Assembly (NCBI GenBank): GCA_040218735.1
Contig: JAVJQW010000038.1
Location: 238,562 to 302,561, forward strand
Direction: 5' to 3'
From: Deltaproteobacteria bacterium
GTDB lineage: Bacteria > Myxococcota > Kuafuiibacteriia > Kuafuiibacteriales > Kuafuiibacteriaceae
Length of the DNA: 64,000 nt
Within the stretch, counting starts at the first letter, position 1. Every line of letters begins with the position of its first letter. Below are positions 1-6,047 of the stretch, one piece after another. The translations under genes and the position numbers were made by a program. The notes under the pieces were generated by a model. That model was not told the DNA's origin. It made no database searches and was given only the letters and a program-made list of their open reading frames with translations.

Positions 1-171
1 CTGCGCGTCGCGTATGCGTCGCGCGCGCCGTTCGGCGACGAGCCGACGCTCGACATGTTGCAGGGCGGAGCGCGGCTGAGGCTGTTCAGCTGGCTGTTCG
101 CGGAGGCCTACGCGCAGAAGGGTCGCGCGTTCGAAGCCGGCGCGGGGGTGACGGTGGCGTGGCTCCCCTGA
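1..171 (+). CDS. 3' end of a gene entering the window; hypothetical, possibly outer-membrane beta-strand protein
   Basis: Frame 1 is open from base 1 to TGA 169-171 (...LRLFSWLFAEAYAQKGRAFEAGAGVTVAWLP*), with host-like codon usage and alternating hydrophobic residues. Confidence 0.55.
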   Translation: MRVAYASRAPFGDEPTLDMLQGGARLRLFSWLFAEAYAQKGRAFEAGAGVTVAWLP

Positions 172-206
172 CGCGAAGTCGAACGAGATGTGGCAGAGTC
201 GGCGCG

Positions 207-1094
207 ATGCGTTGGCTGCTCCTGCTCTTGGTCGCTCTGTCGTTTGCTTGCGAGGGCAAGCTCGACAAGGAGCGTTTCCGTCGTCGCGCGGAGAAGGCGT
301 ACATCGAGGTCAACTCGGGTTGGACGATCATCAAGCGCGACCTGCACGAGACGATCTTCGTGCGCGGCGATCAGGTCGACACACTCGACGTCCAGACGAT
401 GTTCGAGGACTACGAGAAGAGCGGTCAGAAGGGGTCGGACTATTTCGAGGCCTGGATGGCGGAGCGCAAGGCGGAGGCCGAGGCGCGCCGGCGAACGCTG
501 GAGCAGGCCAAGTCGGAGGTCATCCCGATCATCAAGAGCGAGAAGTGGATTCGGGTGCAGGACCTCGGGGCGATCGGACCGGAGCGCATCCGCGACCAGA
601 TTCGCCCATGGCGGCAGGAGGTCGCGCCCGACGTCTTCGCGGTCCTCGGCATCCCCGAGGAGAAGCTCGGCTATCGCTTCGCCTCGATCGAAGAGGTGAA
701 GGCGTCGAAGGTCTCGGACGACGCGTGGATGAAGATCGGCATGGAGAACGTCCGCCGCATCGTCGGTGAGCCGACCGGCCAAGAGATGCGCATGGAGGAC
801 AAACTGAAGGTCTTCGACCTGAAGAACGTCGACGGCGTCTCCGCGCTGCTGCTGGACCCGCGCTTCCGCGCGAACATGCTCGAGAAGTTCTCGCTGTCAG
901 AGCTGGGCGCGGCGGTGCCGATCCGCAACGTGCTGATCGTGTTCGACCCGGCGGACTTCACCACGATCAAACCCATCCGCGCGCGCGCGCGGCAGCTGTA
1001 TGACTCGCAGAACCACCCGGGGTTCAGGGGGTTGTTGAGGTTCGATAAGAACGTGGTGACGGTGCTGGACTCGGGGGAGGACAAGAAGAAGTAG
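207..1094 (+). CDS. Lipoprotein with DUF1444/YtpQ-like C-terminal region
   Basis: Signal peptide [15 protein letters not shown] (lipobox Cys); motifs SALLLDP and [14 protein letters not shown] resemble DUF1444. Confidence 0.6.
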
Positions 1095-1100
1095 AGGGGA

Positions 1101-1353
1101 TCGGATTCGGACACGGACTCGGATTCGGTTTACGGACACGGATTCGGTTACGGACACGGATTCGGACACGGATTCGGTTACGGACACGGATTCGGTTACG
1201 GACACGGATTCGGACACGGACACGGACACGGATTCGGACACGGACACGGATTCGGACACGGACACGGATTCGGTTGCGGACTCGGATTCGGATTCGGACA
1301 CGGACTCGGATTCGGCTACGGACTCGGATTCGGTTACGGACTCGGATTCGGAA
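1101..1353. repeat. Degenerate hexamer tandem array (TCGGAT/ACGGAC/TCGGAC/ACGGAT/TCGGTT), about 42 units
   Basis: Directly visible between two convergent stop codons; a single 1-nt phase slip near 1131 argues against coding. Confidence 0.95.
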
Positions 1354-1355
1354 TC

Positions 1356-1389
1356 TGCTGGCGGCGCCCCTCGCGGAGCGCCGCCGGCA
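1356..1389 (-). terminator. 15-bp GC-rich hairpin with GCGA tetraloop, downstream of four-helix-bundle gene 1
   Basis: Arms 1356-1370 and 1375-1389; loop reads GCGA on the minus (sense) strand; no U-tract. Confidence 0.6.
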
Positions 1390-1399
1390 TGACCTTCGC

Positions 1400-1753
1400 C
1401 TAATGCGTCAGCCGATACAGCATCGCGTTAATCCTATCGATGAGCTCCATGCTCACCGCGGCGTCCTCCGCCTTCACGTACCCCCAGGCCACCGCCACGC
1501 GCAGCGCGCAACGCACTTCGTCCGCGCTGCCCGCAGCCACCGTGTAGTGATATGTCCTCGACCCGCCCTCCCGTCGACGCCCCTCACCGAGATTCAGCGC
1601 CACCGAGCTCGCGGCGTCCCGAATCTGCTTCGCCAAGCTCGCGTCCTTCTTTCGGATCTTGCTCACCACGTCGACGAGTTCCTCGATGAGCTCCACGCTC
1701 ACCTCCAGAACGATGAACCGACCAGGAGAGGCTGCATTGTTTTTTCTGTTCAT
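1400..1753 (-). CDS. Four helix bundle protein (TIGR02436 / 23S rRNA IVP / bAvd-like), copy 1
   Basis: 117 aa with LAKQIRDAASSVALNLGEG...GSADEV...WGY family motif; GGAGG before the ATG. Confidence 0.9.
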   Translation of the reverse strand: MNRKNNAASPGRFIVLEVSVELIEELVDVVSKIRKKDASLAKQIRDAASSVALNLGEGRRREGGSRTYHYTVAAGSADEVRCALRVAVAWGYVKAEDAAVSMELIDRINAMLYRLTH

Positions 1754-1918
1754 ACCTCCCCCCGGCGCAGGCGGCGTGACGAACGGCCCTCCCTTCGTTC
1801 GGTTACTTTGAGTGGAATCTATTCGGTGGCTCGGTCGTGGTGGGGAATCGGAACCATAGGCCGATCGGCACGACGGTTGCGCTGCACATAAGGGATGAAC
1901 AGAAAAAACAATGCAGCC
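1730..1918. ncRNA. Candidate structured leader or antisense RNA (or ssDNA fold-back) of four-helix-bundle gene 1
   Basis: Perfect 24-bp inverted repeat, 1730-1753 with 1895-1918, enclosing motifs GCAGCGCAAC and GTCACGCCGCCTGCGC (sense strand) shared with the gene 2 leader. Confidence 0.6.
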
Positions 1919-2055
1919 GTCGGCCGGTAGCTCGGTGTGTGCACCTCAACCAAGAAGACGGAGAGAGAGTCCTCCCCTTCAATCCTGCAGAAGAAAGAAC
2001 CTCTCCCGTCAAAGTGCCTTAGGGAGTTGAAACCATCCCCAGTACCACGACCCCC

Positions 2056-2178
2056 GGCCGAGTCCTTGGTTGGGTTCACACCCTTTGAGCAGCGCAACGG
2101 ACGCGCCAAGGCCCGCAGACGGTCCTTGTCACGCCCCCTGCGCTGAAGGGGGGCATGAACCCAACCAAGAACTCGACC
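2056..2178. ncRNA. Candidate structured leader or antisense RNA of four-helix-bundle gene 2
   Basis: 24-bp inverted repeat, 2056-2079 with 2155-2178 (3 transitions, all G.U on the minus strand), enclosing GCAGCGCAAC...GTCACGCCCCCTGCGC. Confidence 0.6.
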
Positions 2179-2502
2179 TACCGCTTCGTGGCGCTCGACG
2201 TGGCGCTGGAGATGATTCGTCAGCTCCGAGAGCCGCTTGCGAAGATTCGAAAGCACGATGCGGATTTGGCGAAGCAGATTCGGAAGGCGGCGGCGTCGGT
2301 GCCGTTGAACGTCGCGGAGGGGAGCCGGCGCGCGGGGGGCGATAGAGCGTATGCGTTCCGAGTTGCGCTCGGGAGCGCCGACGAAGTGCGCGCGGCGTTG
2401 CTGTGCGCGGATGCGTGGGGGTACGCGGAGGTGGACGAGGAGCTACTGGCGACGCTGGATCGCTTGATGGGGCTCATCTGGGGGCTCGGCGGTAGGCGGT
2501 AG
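2155..2502 (+). CDS. Four helix bundle protein (TIGR02436 family), copy 2
   Basis: 115 aa with LAKQIRKAAASVPLNVAEG...GSADEV...WGY; clearly paralogous to copy 1. Confidence 0.9.
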   Translation: MNPTKNSTYRFVALDVALEMIRQLREPLAKIRKHDADLAKQIRKAAASVPLNVAEGSRRAGGDRAYAFRVALGSADEVRAALLCADAWGYAEVDEELLATLDRLMGLIWGLGGRR

Positions 2503-2504
2503 AG

Positions 2505-2546
2505 GAGGAGGCTCGGCGCCGTCGCGAGGCGGCGCCGAGCCTCTTC
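2505..2546 (+). terminator. 19-bp hairpin with GCGA tetraloop, downstream of four-helix-bundle gene 2
   Basis: GAGGAGGCTCGGCGCCGTC-GCGA-GGCGGCGCCGAGCCTCTTC; fully paired with two G.U; no real U-tract. Confidence 0.65.
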
Positions 2547-2555
2547 GATCGCGAC

Positions 2556-2738
2556 TCGGAAACGGAGACGGACTCGGATTCGGACTCGGACTCGGACTCG
2601 GACTCGGATTCGGATTCGGACTCGGATTCGGACTCGGATTCGGATTCGGAATCGGACGCGGAATCGGAATCGGAATCGGAATCGGAATCGGAATCGGAAT
2701 CGGATTCGGTAACGGATTCGGACTTGGTGTCCGAATCC
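2556..2738. repeat. Hexamer tandem array (TCGGAC/TCGGAT/TCGGAA), about 28 units, ending in a snap-back hairpin
   Basis: Directly visible; GGATTCGGAC 2714-2723 pairs with GTCCGAATCC 2729-2738. Confidence 0.95.
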
Positions 2739-3401
2739 CTACGAATCGATCTCCTCGCGCGCCCGCGCATCCAACAACGCGTTCAACCCCCGCGAGATCT
2801 GCTGCGGCTCGTACGTCCCCCGCGGCACGCACCGCCGATACACGTCACCGTTCGTCGCCGCCGTCACGGCGTCGCGGATCTCGTCGAGGGGCTCGACCAC
2901 CAGCGAGTCCAGTCGTCGGGAGAAGAACACGAACACCACGAACGCGATCAGGCCGACGGCGGCGGCGGACCAGGCGCCGGCGAGGCCGAGGCGTTGGGCT
3001 TCGGTGTCCTGTTCGCGCATGGAGCGGCGGTTGATGCCGGAGAGGGCGACGATGGCGTCGACGACGCGGCCGCGGACGGCGCGGTCGTTGGGGCGCTCGA
3101 ACATCGTCTTGGCGTCGCGTTCGATCGCTTCGAGGTAGGGGCGCTCCTCCTCCTCCGTGACGTTGTTCTTGGCGCGCTCGAGCGCGCCGTCGAACTGCGT
3201 ACGCCCCTCCTTGTCGAACGACTCCGTCGCGATCACCGTCAGCATCTCCTCCGCCGCGCGGATGCTGTACTCGTTCTCCGCGAGGATGCGCTCGATCGCC
3301 GGGGACATGCGGGCGAGGAGGGCGATGCCCGTGAAGACGCCCGCGAGCTGGAACACGAAGAGCGTCCCGACCGCCGCGCGGATCTCGCGGCGGACCGTCA
3401 T
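2739..3401 (-). CDS. Membrane protein: TM, four-helix periplasmic sensor, TM, HAMP-like; no kinase domain
   Basis: Start MTVRREIR overlaps the trkA stop (ATGA); ILAENEYSIRAAEEM resembles KinB/4HB-MCP sensors; EPLDEI...GD...E...GLNALLD is HAMP-like. Confidence 0.65.
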   Translation of the reverse strand: MTVRREIRAAVGTLFVFQLAGVFTGIALLARMSPAIERILAENEYSIRAAEEMLTVIATESFDKEGRTQFDGALERAKNNVTEEEERPYLEAIERDAKTMFERPNDRAVRGRVVDAIVALSGINRRSMREQDTEAQRLGLAGAWSAAAVGLIAFVVFVFFSRRLDSLVVEPLDEIRDAVTAATNGDVYRRCVPRGTYEPQQISRGLNALLDARAREEIDS

Positions 3402-4066
3402 GACAGCTTGCTCGCGAGGTCGGTCGCGTCGTTCGCGGCGGTCGCGACGACCAGCACGTCGGACGAGGACAGCGGGGTGTTCGCGTCCGGCAGGACGGCT
3501 TGCACCGCTCCGTCGATCTTGCGGCGCACCGCCACCACCGTCACGCCGAGCTTCGCGGGCAGGTTCGCCTCGCGCAGCGACTTGCCGGCGAGGGAGTCGG
3601 GGACCTGGAGCTCCGTGATGACCAGGTTCCCGCCGAGCGGGATCTGGTCCACGACGTTCGAGTGCGCGAGCCGCGCCGCGAGCCGCTCGCCGAAGGCGCG
3701 CTCCGGGTTCACGACCTCGTGCGCGCCGACGAGGCGGAGGATGCGTTCGTGGATGGTGTCGTTGGCGCGGGCGACGATCCGCTTCGCGCCCATCTGCCGA
3801 AGGAGGGCCGTCACTACGATCGAGCCGTCGCGTGACTCGTCGCCGATCGCCACGACGCACAGGTCGCGCTCCGCGGGCTGCGTGCGGGCGAGGGCGGCCT
3901 CGTCGGCTGCGTCGAAGGCGACGGCCTCCGCGGCCCACGTCGAGGCTTGCTGCACGAGCCGGTCGTCCTGGTCGACGACCATCACCTCGACGCCGTGCTG
4001 CGCGAGCGCCCGTGCGGTCGACATGCCGAACTGGCCGAGACCCAGGATGAGTGCCTGTGTCTTCAC
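3398..4066 (-). CDS. trkA: TrkA/KtrA family K+ uptake regulatory (RCK) subunit
   Basis: GLGQFG Rossmann motif; ILRLVGAHEVVNPERAFG; C-terminal TrkA_C. Confidence 0.92.
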   Translation of the reverse strand: MKTQALILGLGQFGMSTARALAQHGVEVMVVDQDDRLVQQASTWAAEAVAFDAADEAALARTQPAERDLCVVAIGDESRDGSIVVTALLRQMGAKRIVARANDTIHERILRLVGAHEVVNPERAFGERLAARLAHSNVVDQIPLGGNLVITELQVPDSLAGKSLREANLPAKLGVTVVAVRRKIDGAVQAVLPDANTPLSSSDVLVVATAANDATDLASKLS

Positions 4067-4100
4067 GTCGCCTGCTTTGTCGTCCGACGCGCCGGTCAGG

Positions 4101-6047
4101 TCAACCGACGGGGACGTCCTCCTCGGGCAGCCGCCACCCCGAGTCGGGCGCCTGGTCCGCGAGCCAGAGGAACGCGGTGAGCGGTCCGATGCGGCCGACG
4201 AACATACACGCGCCGATGATCACCTTGCCGACCGCGTCGAGTTTGCCGGTGGCGCCCGTCGACAGGCCGACCGTGCCCAACGCGGAGAACGACTCGAACC
4301 ACAGGTCCGCGACCGGGATGTCCTGCGTGAGCGTCAACGCGATCACCGCGCCCACACTGGACGCGACGCCCAGCGACATGACCGCCGCCGCCCGGTAAAC
4401 CGTGATGTGCGCGAGGCGACGGCCGCCGACCTCCGCTTTGGCCACGCCGCGCAACGCCGCGAGCACCGCGAGCGTCAGCACCGCGATGGTCGTGGTCTTG
4501 ATGCCCCCCGCCGTGGAGCCCGGGCTCCCGCCGATCAACATCAACACGATCATGATTGCGTGCGTCGCGGGCGCGAGGTGCGCGAAGTCGACCGAGTTGA
4601 AGCCCGCGGTGCGAAGCGTGACCGACTGGAACCACGCGTTGTGGAGCCGGTCGACGACGTCGAGGTTCAGGAGCGCACCGTTCCATTCGATCGCGCCGAT
4701 CAAGAGCGCCGGGACGACGGTCAGCAGCGCGCTCGTCACGAGGACGAGGCGCGCCTGGAGCGACACCCGCTCGCGTCGCACGAACCGCGGGAGCATCACG
4801 ACCGTGGCCGGCCCAAGGCCGCCGATGATGATCGTGAGTGCGATGACGTGCAGGACGAACGGGTCCGTTTGGTAGGGCACCAGGCTGTCCGACTGCAGCG
4901 CGAAGCCGGCGTTGCAGAACGCCGACACCGCGGTGAACAGCCCGCGCCATATCGCGGTGGGGAGCGCGTCGCCGGCGAAGTAGAACCGCGTGGCCAGCAG
5001 CAGCGCGCTGACCCCCTCCGTGGCGCCGGTGACGGTGAGGATCATCCGGACCGCCCTGCGAATCGAGGGGCCGCCCTCGGTGCCGAGGACACCGGCCGCG
5101 GCGCGCTCGTAGGTGAAGCTCACGCGACGGTCGAGGACGAACAGCACCGCGACCGACAACGCCATGATGCCGAGCCCGCCGACCTGGATCAGCGCGAGGA
5201 TCGTGGCTTGCCCGGCGAAGGTGAAGGCGGTCGGCGTGTCGACGACGATCAATCCCGTCACACACACCGCGCTGATCGCGGTGAACGTCGCGTCCAATCC
5301 GGACAGCACCGGTCCCGCCGACGCGTACGGGCTCGACAGCGCGACGGCGCCGATGACGGCGAGCAACGAGAACGTCGCGACGACGAAGCGGCCGGGGCGG
5401 CGCAGGAGGAAGTCGAGGTCGCGCGCCACCATCGCGGGGGCTGCGACGACGAGCAACGCGACGCCCGCGAGGACGGGGCCCACCGCGACCAACACGCCGA
5501 ACGGGTCGTAGAAGAGGACCGTGATGACACCGCCCGCGACGATCGCGCCCGCGACTCGGTTCATTCCGCCCAGCGCGTTGCGTGCGTAGCGCGCGGCGAA
5601 CACGAGCGCGGCCAGCGACGCGACGATCAGCGACGCGTCGCTGATGCCGTCCGCTGGTCCGCGGAGGCCGCCGAAGTACCCGGCGAAAGCGCAGACGATC
5701 AACGCATCGCGCGCGTCCTTACGTTCCGTCATCGCCGCGAGTGACACGCGGCGGACGAACATGCGCGCGAGGGTGGTGCTCACGACGAGGCCGAGCACGA
5801 GGGCGCGCGCGGGGGCGTCGACGAGGAGCGGTCCGCTGACGAGGACGAACGCGACGGCCGCGACGAGGATCAGCACGCGAGCCAACGCTTCCATGCGTGG
5901 CATCACGAACCCGGCGGTCACCGCGGCGACCGCGCCGGCGCCGAGGACGATCGCGAGCGCAGGATCGACCAGCGAGATGGACGTCTGCGTGGCGGCGCCG
6001 AAGAGCGGCACCGCGCACAGGCCGAGGACGACGAAGGTGCCGCGCAC
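4101..6047 (-). CDS. trkH: TrkH/KtrB family K+ transporter with extra N-terminal TM segments
   Basis: SAVCVTGL, SAFCNAGF, RTAGFN, GGSPGSTAGGIK and SALGTVGLSTG filter motifs. Confidence 0.92.
   Translation of the reverse strand: MRGTFVVLGLCAVPLFGAATQTSISLVDPALAIVLGAGAVAAVTAGFVMPRMEALARVLILVAAVAFVLVSGPLLVDAPARALVLGLVVSTTLARMFVRRVSLAAMTERKDARDALIVCAFAGYFGGLRGPADGISDASLIVASLAALVFAARYARNALGGMNRVAGAIVAGGVITVLFYDPFGVLVAVGPVLAGVALLVVAAPAMVARDLDFLLRRPGRFVVATFSLLAVIGAVALSSPYASAGPVLSGLDATFTAISAVCVTGLIVVDTPTAFTFAGQATILALIQVGGLGIMALSVAVLFVLDRRVSFTYERAAAGVLGTEGGPSIRRAVRMILTVTGATEGVSALLLATRFYFAGDALPTAIWRGLFTAVSAFCNAGFALQSDSLVPYQTDPFVLHVIALTIIIGGLGPATVVMLPRFVRRERVSLQARLVLVTSALLTVVPALLIGAIEWNGALLNLDVVDRLHNAWFQSVTLRTAGFNSVDFAHLAPATHAIMIVLMLIGGSPGSTAGGIKTTTIAVLTLAVLAALRGVAKAEVGGRRLAHITVYRAAAVMSLGVASSVGAVIALTLTQDIPVADLWFESFSALGTVGLSTGATGKLDAVGKVIIGACMFVGRIGPLTAFLWLADQAPDSGWRLPEEDVPVG

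Follow-up and report, generated by a model that had tools for sequence, protein, structure and literature searches.

A conserved hairpin module at the translation start of PF05635 genes in small, multicopy gene cassettes of Myxococcota

The window analysed here, a 64,000-nt stretch of a Myxococcota contig, contains a 1.64-kb inserted segment located between convergent host stop codons, with protein-coding genes on either side. Its features are as follows:

1095..2738, no strand: whole inserted segment, comprising left array, gene 1, hairpin 1, spacer, hairpin 2, gene 2 and right array
1098..1352, no strand: left period-6 tandem array, about 42 units of TCGGAN type (Tandem Repeats Finder)
1400..1753, minus strand: gene 1, 117 aa, PF05635/TIGR02436 four-helix-bundle protein (Pfam E = 2.8e-15, also matched in NCBIfam)
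1730..1918, minus strand: hairpin 1 (inverted repeat I5), 3' arm 1730-1757 with the ATG plus 8 codons of gene 1, 5' arm 1891-1918
1765..1780, minus strand: conserved 3' half-core of hairpin 1, GTCACG..CCTGCGC type, with the ATG 11 nt further on (pattern match C66:240326-240341(-))
1919..2055, no strand: spacer of 137 nt between the back-to-back hairpins, A+T-richer by eye
2056..2178, plus strand: hairpin 2 (inverted repeat I6), 5' arm 2056-2083, 3' arm 2151-2178 with the ATG plus 8 codons of gene 2
2128..2143, plus strand: conserved 3' half-core of hairpin 2 (pattern match C66:240689-240704(+))
2155..2502, plus strand: gene 2, 115 aa, PF05635/TIGR02436 four-helix-bundle protein (Pfam E = 2.4e-12)
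2505..2546, plus strand: short G+C-rich inverted repeat (I8), 17-nt arms, 94% complementary, just 3' of the gene 2 stop
2556..2722, no strand: right period-6 tandem array, 27.8 units, consensus TCGGAA (Tandem Repeats Finder)

A sister genome of the same genus (G011, contig C308) lacks the 1.64-kb segment. Sequence comparison showed that it joins window positions 1-1094 (83% identity) to 2779-4400 (81%), with 35 nt separating the matches, and that the host stop codons lie only 4 nt apart there. The segment 1095..2738 is an insertion relative to G011, and the hairpins belong to a multicopy insertion, which the original prediction overlooked. The ends of the insertion in the window are the period-6 arrays, the hairpins not being terminal. 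Part of the left array and the right array are 73% complementary (inverted repeat I4), the plus-strand sense being the same in both, and arrays similar to the left array were found at no fewer than 10 other places in the source genome, G000. Inverted period-6 arrays flank other PF05635 genes of the lineage, at three of the five loci tested (L002, 58 nt, 93%; L036, 43 nt, 91%; L054, 50 nt, 92%). The spacer is common to three genomic copies, with 92-94% identity between them. The inverted repeat 3' of gene 2 is a possible terminator stem, although its T-run is not clear and it was absent from the output of a terminator scan. In contigs built from DNA runs, the locus is represented by short unitigs only, in which the variants equal other genomic copies.

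The two divergent genes both encode PF05635 proteins of the 23S rRNA intervening sequence (IVS) type, with Pfam scores of 56.9 and 47.4 bits against a cut-off of 33.8. Among the three genomic copies compared, synonymous and nonsynonymous changed codons stood at 18:1, 19:1 and 15:2 for gene 1 and at 14:4, 19:4 and 14:4 for gene 2. This large excess of synonymous changes indicates that the cargo proteins are functional and under purifying selection. The gene 2 product is 55% identical to a cassette protein of family f14. PADLOC assigned no defence family to the three proteins tested. To our knowledge, two very large families of small proteins, PF05635 (Avd-like) and DUF559 (Vsr-like nuclease), have a role known only in diversity-generating retroelements. 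Both multiply inside genomes, and one genome of the lineage holds 101 PF05635 matches.

The original prediction held that each gene carries an upstream inverted copy of its own first 8 codons, within a conserved fold that would bury the ribosome-binding site (RBS) and start codon. Both inverted repeats were found, pairing 1730-1757 with 1891-1918 and 2056-2083 with 2151-2178, and their arms overlap the starts of the open reading frames 1400-1753(-) and 2155-2502(+). In the inverted-repeat search, the 28-nt arms of hairpin 1 proved 96% complementary and 133 nt apart, with a perfect 24-nt core, and the 28-nt arms of hairpin 2 were 86% complementary and 67 nt apart, the 24-mer having three mismatches, all transitions and each a C.A on the sense strand. 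The 221-nt minus strand of 1715-1935 has a predicted folding energy of -97.6 kcal/mol (z = -5.74), and none of 200 shuffled sequences was as stable. The predicted fold covers the G-rich stretch before the ATG and the start codon itself in the window, in agreement with the suggested burial.

On comparison with their relatives, both inverted repeats are identified as versions of a single conserved hairpin module, about 110-190 nt long, which, as judged from sequence, makes up the 5' portion of small insertion-type gene cassettes that are present in multiple copies in Myxococcota. Its outer stem of 20-30 bp is free to vary in sequence, its internal loop is purine-rich and its inner core is invariant, consisting of two short helices broken by three fixed mismatches (C.U, C.A and C.C). 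The end loop ranges from 4 to about 100 nt across relatives, which extends the variable central loop already noticed between the two window copies. In the elements scored, the 3' arm begins 7-13 nt past the core. The 3' strand of the outer stem bears the translation start of the cargo, in the form of a Shine-Dalgarno sequence (SD) in some lineages and of the ATG plus about 8 codons here.

The claim that the arms co-evolve within a conserved fold holds beyond the window: arm sequences differ between subfamilies, being unrelated among gene 1, gene 2, G009, f14, G194/G197, G124 and G426, and each is complementary to its own partner. At least two Watson-Crick types occur at 33 of 44 pairs among 46 elements, and both sides have changed at 31 of 46 pairs. 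In the model alignment, 89% of cells are paired, whereas shuffles gave 74.4% and slid controls 31-47%, and double-changed cells number 290 against 97.8 +/- 9.1, a count that none of 500 shuffles reached; the covariation score is 0.388 versus 0.149. The compensatory C-G to G-C change reported between the two leaders is present, in the same column pair of this alignment. Mismatches counted in the stems comprise 61 G.U and 95 A.C, but 46 of the latter represent the single invariant C.A, which leaves about 61 to 49; a model-fitted alignment of 2018 cells contains 32 G.U and 34 A.C. Alignments A2 and A4 were made of elements of similar length, a MAFFT alignment of the nine first copies (A1) having misaligned the 5' halves, and A3 left out reverse-strand matches and three partial matches.

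Covariance model R1, seeded without gene-1 hairpins, matched hairpin 1 at C66:240294-240477(-) (window 1733-1916) with 60.1 bits and hairpin 2 at C66:240617-240738(+) (window 2056-2177) with 73.8 bits. The six matches in G000, obtained by scoring 150 of about 27,800 first-look candidates, all front a PF05635 gene. The search for further homologues that had been suggested was productive: copies occur in a second family, where 18 of the 92 genomes have them, and in three lineages besides this family and the source genome; in another set, 4 of 151 genomes carry the module. Predicted stabilities of the hairpins range from -73 to -125 kcal/mol. As a control of specificity, the model accepted 1 of 80 loci among the listed matches to a 14-base pattern, the rest being chance, and a 16-base pattern gave mostly chance matches outside f1 and f14 across 401 genomes. 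At locus L342, the pattern occurs beside a Phage_integrase gene; it fails to fold into a hairpin there and was therefore rejected as a chance match.

In Rfam 15, the window region 1000-3000 gave 14 weak matches at E values up to 10, the best scoring 27.8 bits where the gathering score is 101.7, and five related loci matched tRNA alone at E values up to 0.1. The fold thus corresponds to no family near its gathering score, as had been expected, and the module is a candidate new RNA or DNA motif family for Rfam-type libraries. Our literature search returned no paper tying PF05635 or DUF559 genes to this hairpin, to REPINs or to RAYTs, and the supplementary tables of PMC6006769, which give hairpins per Y1 subclass, may hold a relative.

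The position of the start codon relative to the hairpin varies. The homologous 3' arm in family f14 is a 5' untranslated region with an SD, the ATG comes after the hairpin, and alignment of the proteins places residue 3 from f14 opposite residue 11 of the gene 2 product. The upstream copy of a gene's own first 8 codons is thus a true description of both window genes and not a general feature of the module; the alignment identifies these codons as a former 5'-UTR arm, that is, a lineage-specific by-product. In G124, SD and ATG both lie just outside the hairpin. Among 104 cargo-bearing metagenome elements, 69 have an in-frame start 3-20 nt past the core (57 ATG, 8 TTG and 4 GTG); ATG accounts for 57/69 of starts at the first bases of the arm versus 21/35 of later ones. 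Both starts are kept in frame at L318.

The cargo varies as well. Of the metagenome elements, 103 are followed by 450 nt or more of sequence, those with less being excluded; they front a DUF559 gene in 57 cases, a PF05635-type gene in 37 and neither in 9, some of these 9 cargo-free elements being chance matches. Pfam confirmed all 8 DUF559 candidates tested, and DUF559 units occur in tandem at L312, L360, L398 and L413. In G426, a metagenome-assembled genome of Kofleriaceae, 10 R1 matches (E from 3e-7 to 4e-5) lie beside Y1_Tnp genes (PF01797, E = 3.7e-9 and 2.6e-7), with one hairpin about 150-250 nt upstream of the transposase gene and another downstream; at L271, inverted copies at 1501-1610(+) and 2455-2566(-) flank the gene. 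The same genome has hairpin-fronted PF05635 genes (L299 and L292). The same invariant core therefore precedes three unrelated families, PF05635, DUF559 and Y1 transposase. No Y1 transposase adjoins any of the 103 metagenome elements. G000 has five Y1_Tnp homologues, and a search with filters off placed this hairpin beside none of them; Y1 homologues of G197 and G369 likewise have no such hairpin as a neighbour, and G009, G191 and G410 gave no Y1 homologue with the query used.

Several known systems resemble these cassettes. In the passages of PMC4990558 that treat the Coxiella IVS, a PF05635 open reading frame lies within a 28-bp stem that is cut by RNase III. The 23S rRNA IVSs of Coxiella burnetii and Leptospira share with the window insert a PF05635 ('S23p') open reading frame, as in both genes here, a near-perfect stem of about 28 bp by the start region of the frame, the character of a selfish insert and short tandem repeats near the start. 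However, IVSs sit in helix 45 or 25 of 23S rRNA, whereas the window insert lies between convergent protein genes in a region without rRNA match. The IVS stem is made of the two ends of the element and encloses the open reading frame, while the stems described here enclose leaders of 133 and 67 nt and not the frames; they also have a mismatched invariant core, which occurs with DUF559 and Y1 transposase genes too.

Fold-back protection in IS10/IS50 and at the left end of IS200 relies on an inverted repeat at the outer edge that pairs with the RBS or start, leaving external transcripts untranslated. The module likewise pairs an upstream arm with the start region, G124 and the transposase units of G426 being exceptions. 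The IS10/IS50 stems are short, differ from element to element and go with a transposase gene, whereas the module combines a stem of 20-30 bp with a conserved inner core of about 20 bp, is common to unrelated cargo and in many cases provides the first codons, start codon included. The IS10 case is defined by an internal promoter; the counterpart in the module is putative, and a sigma-70 scan inside and beside the hairpin, spacer included, gave 0 sites.

REPs and REPINs with their RAYT transposases are also similar, in the hairpin of about 100 nt formed by two inverted halves, in the multiple, patchy copies, in stems that are Watson-Crick only with fixed irregularities and in the inverted copies that flank a Y1 transposase gene (in G426 at L271, but not in G000, G197 or G369). 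REPINs, however, mostly carry no gene and reach tens to hundreds of copies per genome, while the module nearly always accompanies a cargo gene, and does so in one orientation (94 of 103 metagenome elements and 6 of 6 in G000), and most carrier genomes show no matching transposase. A casual look at the module revealed no GTAG- or CGTC-type foot. A free MITE or REPIN was rejected, all six G000 matches being gene-linked. Membership of IS200/IS605 was rejected too, given that the subterminal hairpins of these elements measure about 20-25 nt and have the same orientation at both ends of the tnpA unit, whereas the module measures 110-190 nt and is inverted in G426, and that the window has no tnpA. 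Integron attC sites, which are associated with small promoterless cassettes, are imperfect hairpins 57-141 nt long; their sequence is poorly conserved, but their irregularities are, and the end loop varies. The fixed irregularities of the module and the tandem DUF559 units recall them; nevertheless, the module lies 5' of its gene with no integron integrase nearby, and attC was rejected for lack of conserved AAC...GTT boxes at the stem bases of the aligned elements and of an integrase in the window. An inverton with a phase-variable promoter was rejected as the main reading, since the orientation of the core to the gene is constant and the arms differ wholly between loci, so that no single site-specific invertase could read them. 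Contigs of four DNA runs contained no strand-change joints, a weak check given that contigs hide rare forms.

Our preferred, still tentative reading (probability about 0.45) is that the hairpin acts as an RNA fold-back hiding the translation start of the cargo, which it probably keeps silent on stray transcripts. When a transcript enters from outside the cassette, the 5' strand would pair back onto the translation start, and the cargo gene would go untranslated. The long perfect duplex may also be a substrate of RNase III, as are the 23S rRNA IVS stems that carry the same gene family. Given that the cargo is under purifying selection and that a stem this strong would block initiation, the productive mRNA would have to begin inside the hairpin or be processed. 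The internal promoter is thus putative, deduced from selection on the cargo. The invariant core would be read by a factor other than the cargo protein, be it a nuclease, a transposase or RNA polymerase. In favour of the fold-back are the covarying structure, the start at the first bases of the 3' arm in 69 of 104 metagenome elements, the occurrence of one core before different cargo, the tie of every G000 match to a gene, the selection on the cargo and the Coxiella stem cut by RNase III. Against it, cleavage of the outer stem by RNase III would, in this lineage, land within the reading frame, the sigma-70 scan gave no promoter, and the parity of G.U and A.C gives no RNA-type mismatch bias in the stems, and a constraint on DNA or on both strands fits as well or better. 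Hiding of the start is also not universal, given the SD and ATG outside the hairpin in G124 and the distance between hairpin and transposase start in G426. The three invariant mismatches would be superfluous for a simple fold-back.

The mismatch parity in near-purely Watson-Crick stems would suit a hairpin of single-stranded DNA that is recognised and cut by an IS200-like Y1 (HUH) transposase, with the PF05635 and DUF559 cassettes as non-autonomous passengers mobilized in trans and the overlap with the start as compaction or a secondary use. This reading, the main rival, which we consider on the unlikely side, draws on the G426 hairpins beside Y1_Tnp genes, with their inverted pair, and on the hairpin-fronted PF05635 genes of the same genome. 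Similarity between copies within a genome often begins a few nucleotides from the hairpin base, convergent pairs are alike from outer base to outer base over about 1000-1030 bp, copies are multiple and patchily spread, and the window unit is an insertion relative to G011. Fixed mismatches are used by the strand-specific hairpin-binding enzymes treated in the relevant passages of PMC6006769, but the Y1 end hairpins given there are of about 20-25 nt. The transposase link, moreover, is confined to one genome, in contrast to the 103 metagenome elements, the five G000 homologues and the three genomes without a detected homologue. Gene-less copies are rare (0 of 6 in G000; 9 of 103, some of them chance), unlike in REPIN populations, most units have a single hairpin and the window insertion ends in period-6 arrays with the hairpins internal. 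Contigs of the four DNA runs also showed no skip joints, which weighs little as contigs drop rare forms. The fold-back and this DNA-level role may coexist in a cargo-independent 'start module' with two uses, serving as a single-stranded DNA end for a Y1/HUH transposase and as an RNA that donates the RBS or the start and first codons to the following frame and silences that frame on foreign transcripts; we regard this combination as doubtful.

The core could instead be a transcription signal in two orientations, the hairpin being a by-product. The -24/-12 promoter class has the consensus GG...GC, in which GG is held to be essential. The bottom strand of the 5' half-core resembles this class, pointing away from the cargo: read by eye, the outward half retains GG and TGC at the correct spacing in every subfamily inspected, and that of hairpin 1 (about 1868-1884, plus strand) fits nearly perfectly. 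The sense 3' half-core keeps the spacing 12-14 nt 5' of the ATG, but has GT in place of GG. An internal start would account for expression of the cargo and for the ATG preference at the first bases of the arm, and the distance from core to 3' arm is fixed. Nevertheless, single or convergent units contain nothing evident for an outward promoter to drive, promoter function requires neither a covarying outer stem of 25-30 bp nor covarying P3/P4 helices, and the likeness was spotted post hoc in G+C-rich DNA, which makes this explanation improbable. Least probable is an autoregulatory operator, a leader hairpin to which the cargo protein would bind so as to repress its own translation, the control implied by the original prediction. 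Avd, a relative of PF05635, binds nucleic acid, the invariant internal loop resembles a protein site and the hairpin covers the start in the window, but a cargo-specific binder is unlikely when one core precedes three unrelated protein families, and the stem seems too stable to require a repressor.

A structured module common to PF05635, DUF559 and transposase genes thus lies on the translation start, within an insertion polymorphic between sister genomes. The case shows that a start codon can migrate into a structural element, with the result that proteins of unrelated families begin with a common N-terminal peptide specified by a hairpin arm; it also calls for caution in the choice of start codons by gene callers. 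If the start module with two uses is real, these units would represent an undescribed class of mobile gene cassettes that spreads PF05635 and DUF559 genes and would offer a first handle on how IVS-type genes move and are expressed.

The two genes in the window are divergent paralogues, and both products are four-helix-bundle proteins of PF05635/TIGR02436, the '23S rRNA intervening sequence protein' family. The divergent unit that they form with their hairpins is an insertion: on contig C308 of G011, which belongs to the same genus, the matches to window positions 1-1094 and 2779-4400 are separated by 35 nt, and the convergent stop codons, 1,644 nt apart in the window, lie 4 nt apart there.

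Features of the insertion in the window
1095-2738: inserted block with both genes, both hairpins and two period-6 tandem arrays
1098-1352: left period-6 array, TCGGAN type
1400-1753 (-): gene 1, 117 aa
1730-1757 and 1891-1918 (-): arms of hairpin 1, 28 nt, 96% complementary, spacing 133 nt
2056-2083 and 2151-2178 (+): arms of hairpin 2, 28 nt, 86% complementary, spacing 67 nt
2155-2502 (+): gene 2, 115 aa
2556-2722: right period-6 array, TCGGAN type

The inverted repeats originally predicted at both gene starts were recovered by repeat search, with the ATG of each gene at the beginning of its 3' arm, and the gene 1 leader folds at -97.6 kcal/mol (z = -5.74), a stability reached by none of 200 shuffled sequences. 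An Rfam search returned no matching family, as the prediction had anticipated. On the + strand, 1895-1930 can be read as an 11-codon ORF beginning with the mirrored ATG. The strand opposite each 5' half-core, at about 1868-1884 (+) and 2094-2110 (-), resembles a promoter of the -24/-12 class, and both stretches face away from their own gene, towards the partner gene.

Period-6 arrays adjoin many elements of a second family, f14, on the outer side, and inverted period-6 arrays enclose other PF05635 genes of the window's lineage in three of the five loci tested. Similarity between copies in one genome often begins no more than a few bases from the hairpin base, and convergent pairs are alike from outer hairpin base to outer hairpin base. 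Every unit of the TCGGAN-type arrays contains the word GANTC. Similar arrays are present in G002 and in at least 10 other places of the window's own genome, G000 (C58:358477, C67:43009, C61:135126, C70:93933, C66:150647, C66:162384, C8:299498, C42:399341, C55:113674 and C29:57330), while arrays of other hexamer units adjoin relatives of the cassette.

A covariance model (R1, 44 pairs) was built from an alignment, A2, of 15 f14 elements and three gene 2 hairpins, the gene 1 hairpins being kept out of the seed. With 150 of about 27,800 first-look candidates from G000 scored, R1 had exactly six matches in that genome, namely the three gene 2 hairpins and the three gene 1 hairpins, the latter at 60-69 bits. 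Matches were also found in 18 of 92 f14 genomes, where every element also scores, more weakly, on the reverse strand, in four of the 151 genomes of a phylum-wide sample (G000, G009, G032 and G124) and, ten times, in the Kofleriaceae MAG G426. As a specificity control, 80 loci (598 kb) drawn with a short, chance-prone pattern gave a single match, the Kofleriaceae one. Covariation was assessed in A4, in which 42 sense-strand elements are aligned by MAFFT, against the majority structure of single-sequence folds.

Covariation in A4 (figures that overstate independence, as they come from related sequences that also supplied the structure)
Cells paired: observed 89.0%; shuffles 74.4%; slid controls 31-47%
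Pairs changed on both sides: observed 31/46; shuffles 23.6; slid controls 14-19
Cells changed on both sides: observed 290; shuffles 97.8 +/- 9.1 (0/500 reach 290); slid controls 36-77
Covariation score: observed 0.388; shuffles 0.149; slid controls at most 0.122

These matches and the excess of double-changed cells bear out the prediction of a conserved, covarying fold. The parts of the hairpin are constant across elements, the arms being entirely different words across seven subgroups.

Parts of the hairpin, from the base inwards
Outer stem P1: 20-30 bp, sequence free
Internal loop inside P1: purine-rich
P2: 6-7 bp, invariant, with a C.C mismatch next to it
P3: 5-6 bp, covarying, e.g. GTTTCG/CGAAAC, GTCCCG/CGGGAC, ATCCCG/CGGGAT
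Single G-C pair after P3, between invariant C.A and C.U mismatches
P4: 6-8 bp, covarying
End loop: 4 to about 100 nt

The whole divergent unit is present three times in G000 (11.6 Mb, 70 contigs), at 92-95% identity; one copy is the window's, and the other two are split by contig ends, with gene 1 on C43 and C13 and the leaders and gene 2 on C33 and C70. Synonymous to nonsynonymous codon differences among the three copies number 18:1, 19:1 and 15:2 in gene 1 and 14:4, 19:4 and 14:4 in gene 2, and because these are nearly all synonymous, both proteins must be in use. G009, from another genus of the family, carries four more genes with very different first codons, each with its own upstream inverted copy, and two of them differ by a double compensatory change. 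By the covariance model, the hairpin occurs in only 2 of 20 genomes of the window's lineage (G000 and G009). PF05635 genes are highly multicopy in this lineage, three of its genomes having 101, 27 and 16 matches.

Many of the 101 matches in G001, of the same family as G000, contain exactly one in-frame TAG, and two of those listed have an in-frame TAA instead (example matches: C1:2722734, C5:92923, C1:1460156, C6:254295, C9:1098107); these genes could be a proliferating dead lineage or share a common read-through position. In the closest hairpin-less protein relative (L039, G013:C1:3828145-3831375; phmmer E = 5e-21), the region upstream of the gene contains three copies of a 12-nt palindrome, TCGGTCGACCGA. 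Another PF05635 gene of the lineage (L038, G005) has a different hairpin, at L038:1256-1446, just 3' of the gene, not enclosing it, with 62-nt arms, 87% complementary and 67 nt apart. At two loci of G191 (L116 and L134), the hairpin-PF05635 unit has a divergent gene about 40 nt to its upstream side, and the N-terminus of this gene's product resembles that of a DDE-type transposase, its putative family.

The original description of an upstream copy of each gene's own first 8 codons is true of the window genes, but it does not extend to the family. In f14, the homologous 3' arm is an untranslated leader ending in AAAGGAG, with the ATG about 5 nt past the hairpin, and in G124 the Shine-Dalgarno site and ATG lie just outside it. 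The gene 2 arm aligns base for base with the f14 leader in A2, and residue 3 of the f14 protein aligns with residue 11 of gene 2 (55% identity); therefore, codon 9 of gene 2, today TAC, is the counterpart of the old ATG. The old Shine-Dalgarno site has decayed, and in the window's lineage the start has shifted to an ATG at the arm's first bases. One metagenome element (L318) retains both starts, in frame. What stays constant is a hairpin whose end falls at or next to the translation start, rather than a codon copy.

A 22-base core pattern located at least 124 elements at no fewer than 119 metagenome loci. Among the matches listed, 103 elements had at least 450 nt downstream; directly behind the hairpin, 57 of these carry a gene for a Vsr-like DUF559 nuclease (all eight candidates checked by Pfam were confirmed), 37 a PF05635-type gene and 9 neither, at least one of the last (L342) being a chance match. 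Of the 104 cargo-bearing elements among those matches, 69 have an in-frame start 3-20 nt past the core, where the 3' arm begins (57 ATG, 8 TTG and 4 GTG; some of the TTG codons are probably not the true start). Because of these starts, unrelated proteins have arm-encoded N-termini in common, such as MTRTNNKPS in DUF559 proteins and MNPTKNS, MSRTHTT and MTTETNRPE in PF05635 proteins. In G426 the hairpin adjoins IS200-like Y1 transposase genes (PF01797), with inverted copies on either side of the gene at L271, and also fronts PF05635 genes. Since the hairpin precedes three kinds of gene, the invariant core is unlikely to be read by a cargo-specific binder. At each of four metagenome loci (L312, L360, L398 and L413), two hairpin-DUF559 units follow each other in tandem, equally oriented and 770-890 nt apart; PF05635 units tend instead to inverted pairs, convergent in f14 and divergent in the window and G271:C1. 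At L311 (metagenome), about 150 nt separate the end of a hairpin-DUF559 cassette (557-1019) from a tRNA gene, 1170-1243 (-).

The reading that fits most facts, to which we give a probability of about 45%, is a fold-back guard that would hide the translation start on outside transcripts, for which IS10/IS50 and IS200 offer precedents. In RNA entering from outside the cassette, the cassette's first bases would pair with the translation start, leaving the gene silent, and the duplex may be cleaved by RNase III. A perfect stem of 24-28 bp on the start codon would block initiation; given that purifying selection acts on the cargo all the same, productive mRNA would have to lack the 5' arm or be processed. 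Stem mismatches, in which G.U and A.C are at parity (about 61 G.U against 49 A.C with the invariant C.A set aside and 32 against 34 in the model-fitted alignment), count against such a guard, because selection on sense-strand RNA usually leaves another pattern. So do the uncovered starts in G124 and the G426 transposase units, and three fixed mismatches that it leaves without explanation.

The main rival, in which a Y1/HUH transposase would use the hairpin as DNA in the manner of REP/REPIN or IS200 ends, is possible although rather unlikely. It would account for the fixed irregularities, the Watson-Crick-only stems, the hairpins beside Y1 genes in G426, the boundaries of similarity between copies, the patchy spread and the insertion polymorphism; however, the transposase link was seen in only one genome, and in none of the 103 metagenome elements among the matches listed, the five Y1 homologues of G000 all lack such a hairpin, gene-less copies are rare, and the insertion ends in the window are arrays rather than hairpins. 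Guarding and transposition are mutually compatible. That the invariant core is a promoter seems improbable. Its 5' half keeps, on the bottom strand and in all subgroups, the GG...GC spacing of the -24/-12 class, pointing outward; the sense half-core, 12-14 nt upstream of the ATG, carries GT in place of the GG of that class.

Elements of this kind are already known: hairpins that hide the start at the borders of selfish elements, IVS stems and hairpins of the REP type. The Coxiella IVS carries the same PF05635 gene family and has a 28-bp stem that RNase III cleaves (PMC4990558). Our literature search found no paper linking PF05635 or DUF559 genes to such a hairpin. Three traits of the family seem to be new, namely the invariant mismatched core, the occurrence before cargo genes that are unrelated to each other and the donation of a start codon.
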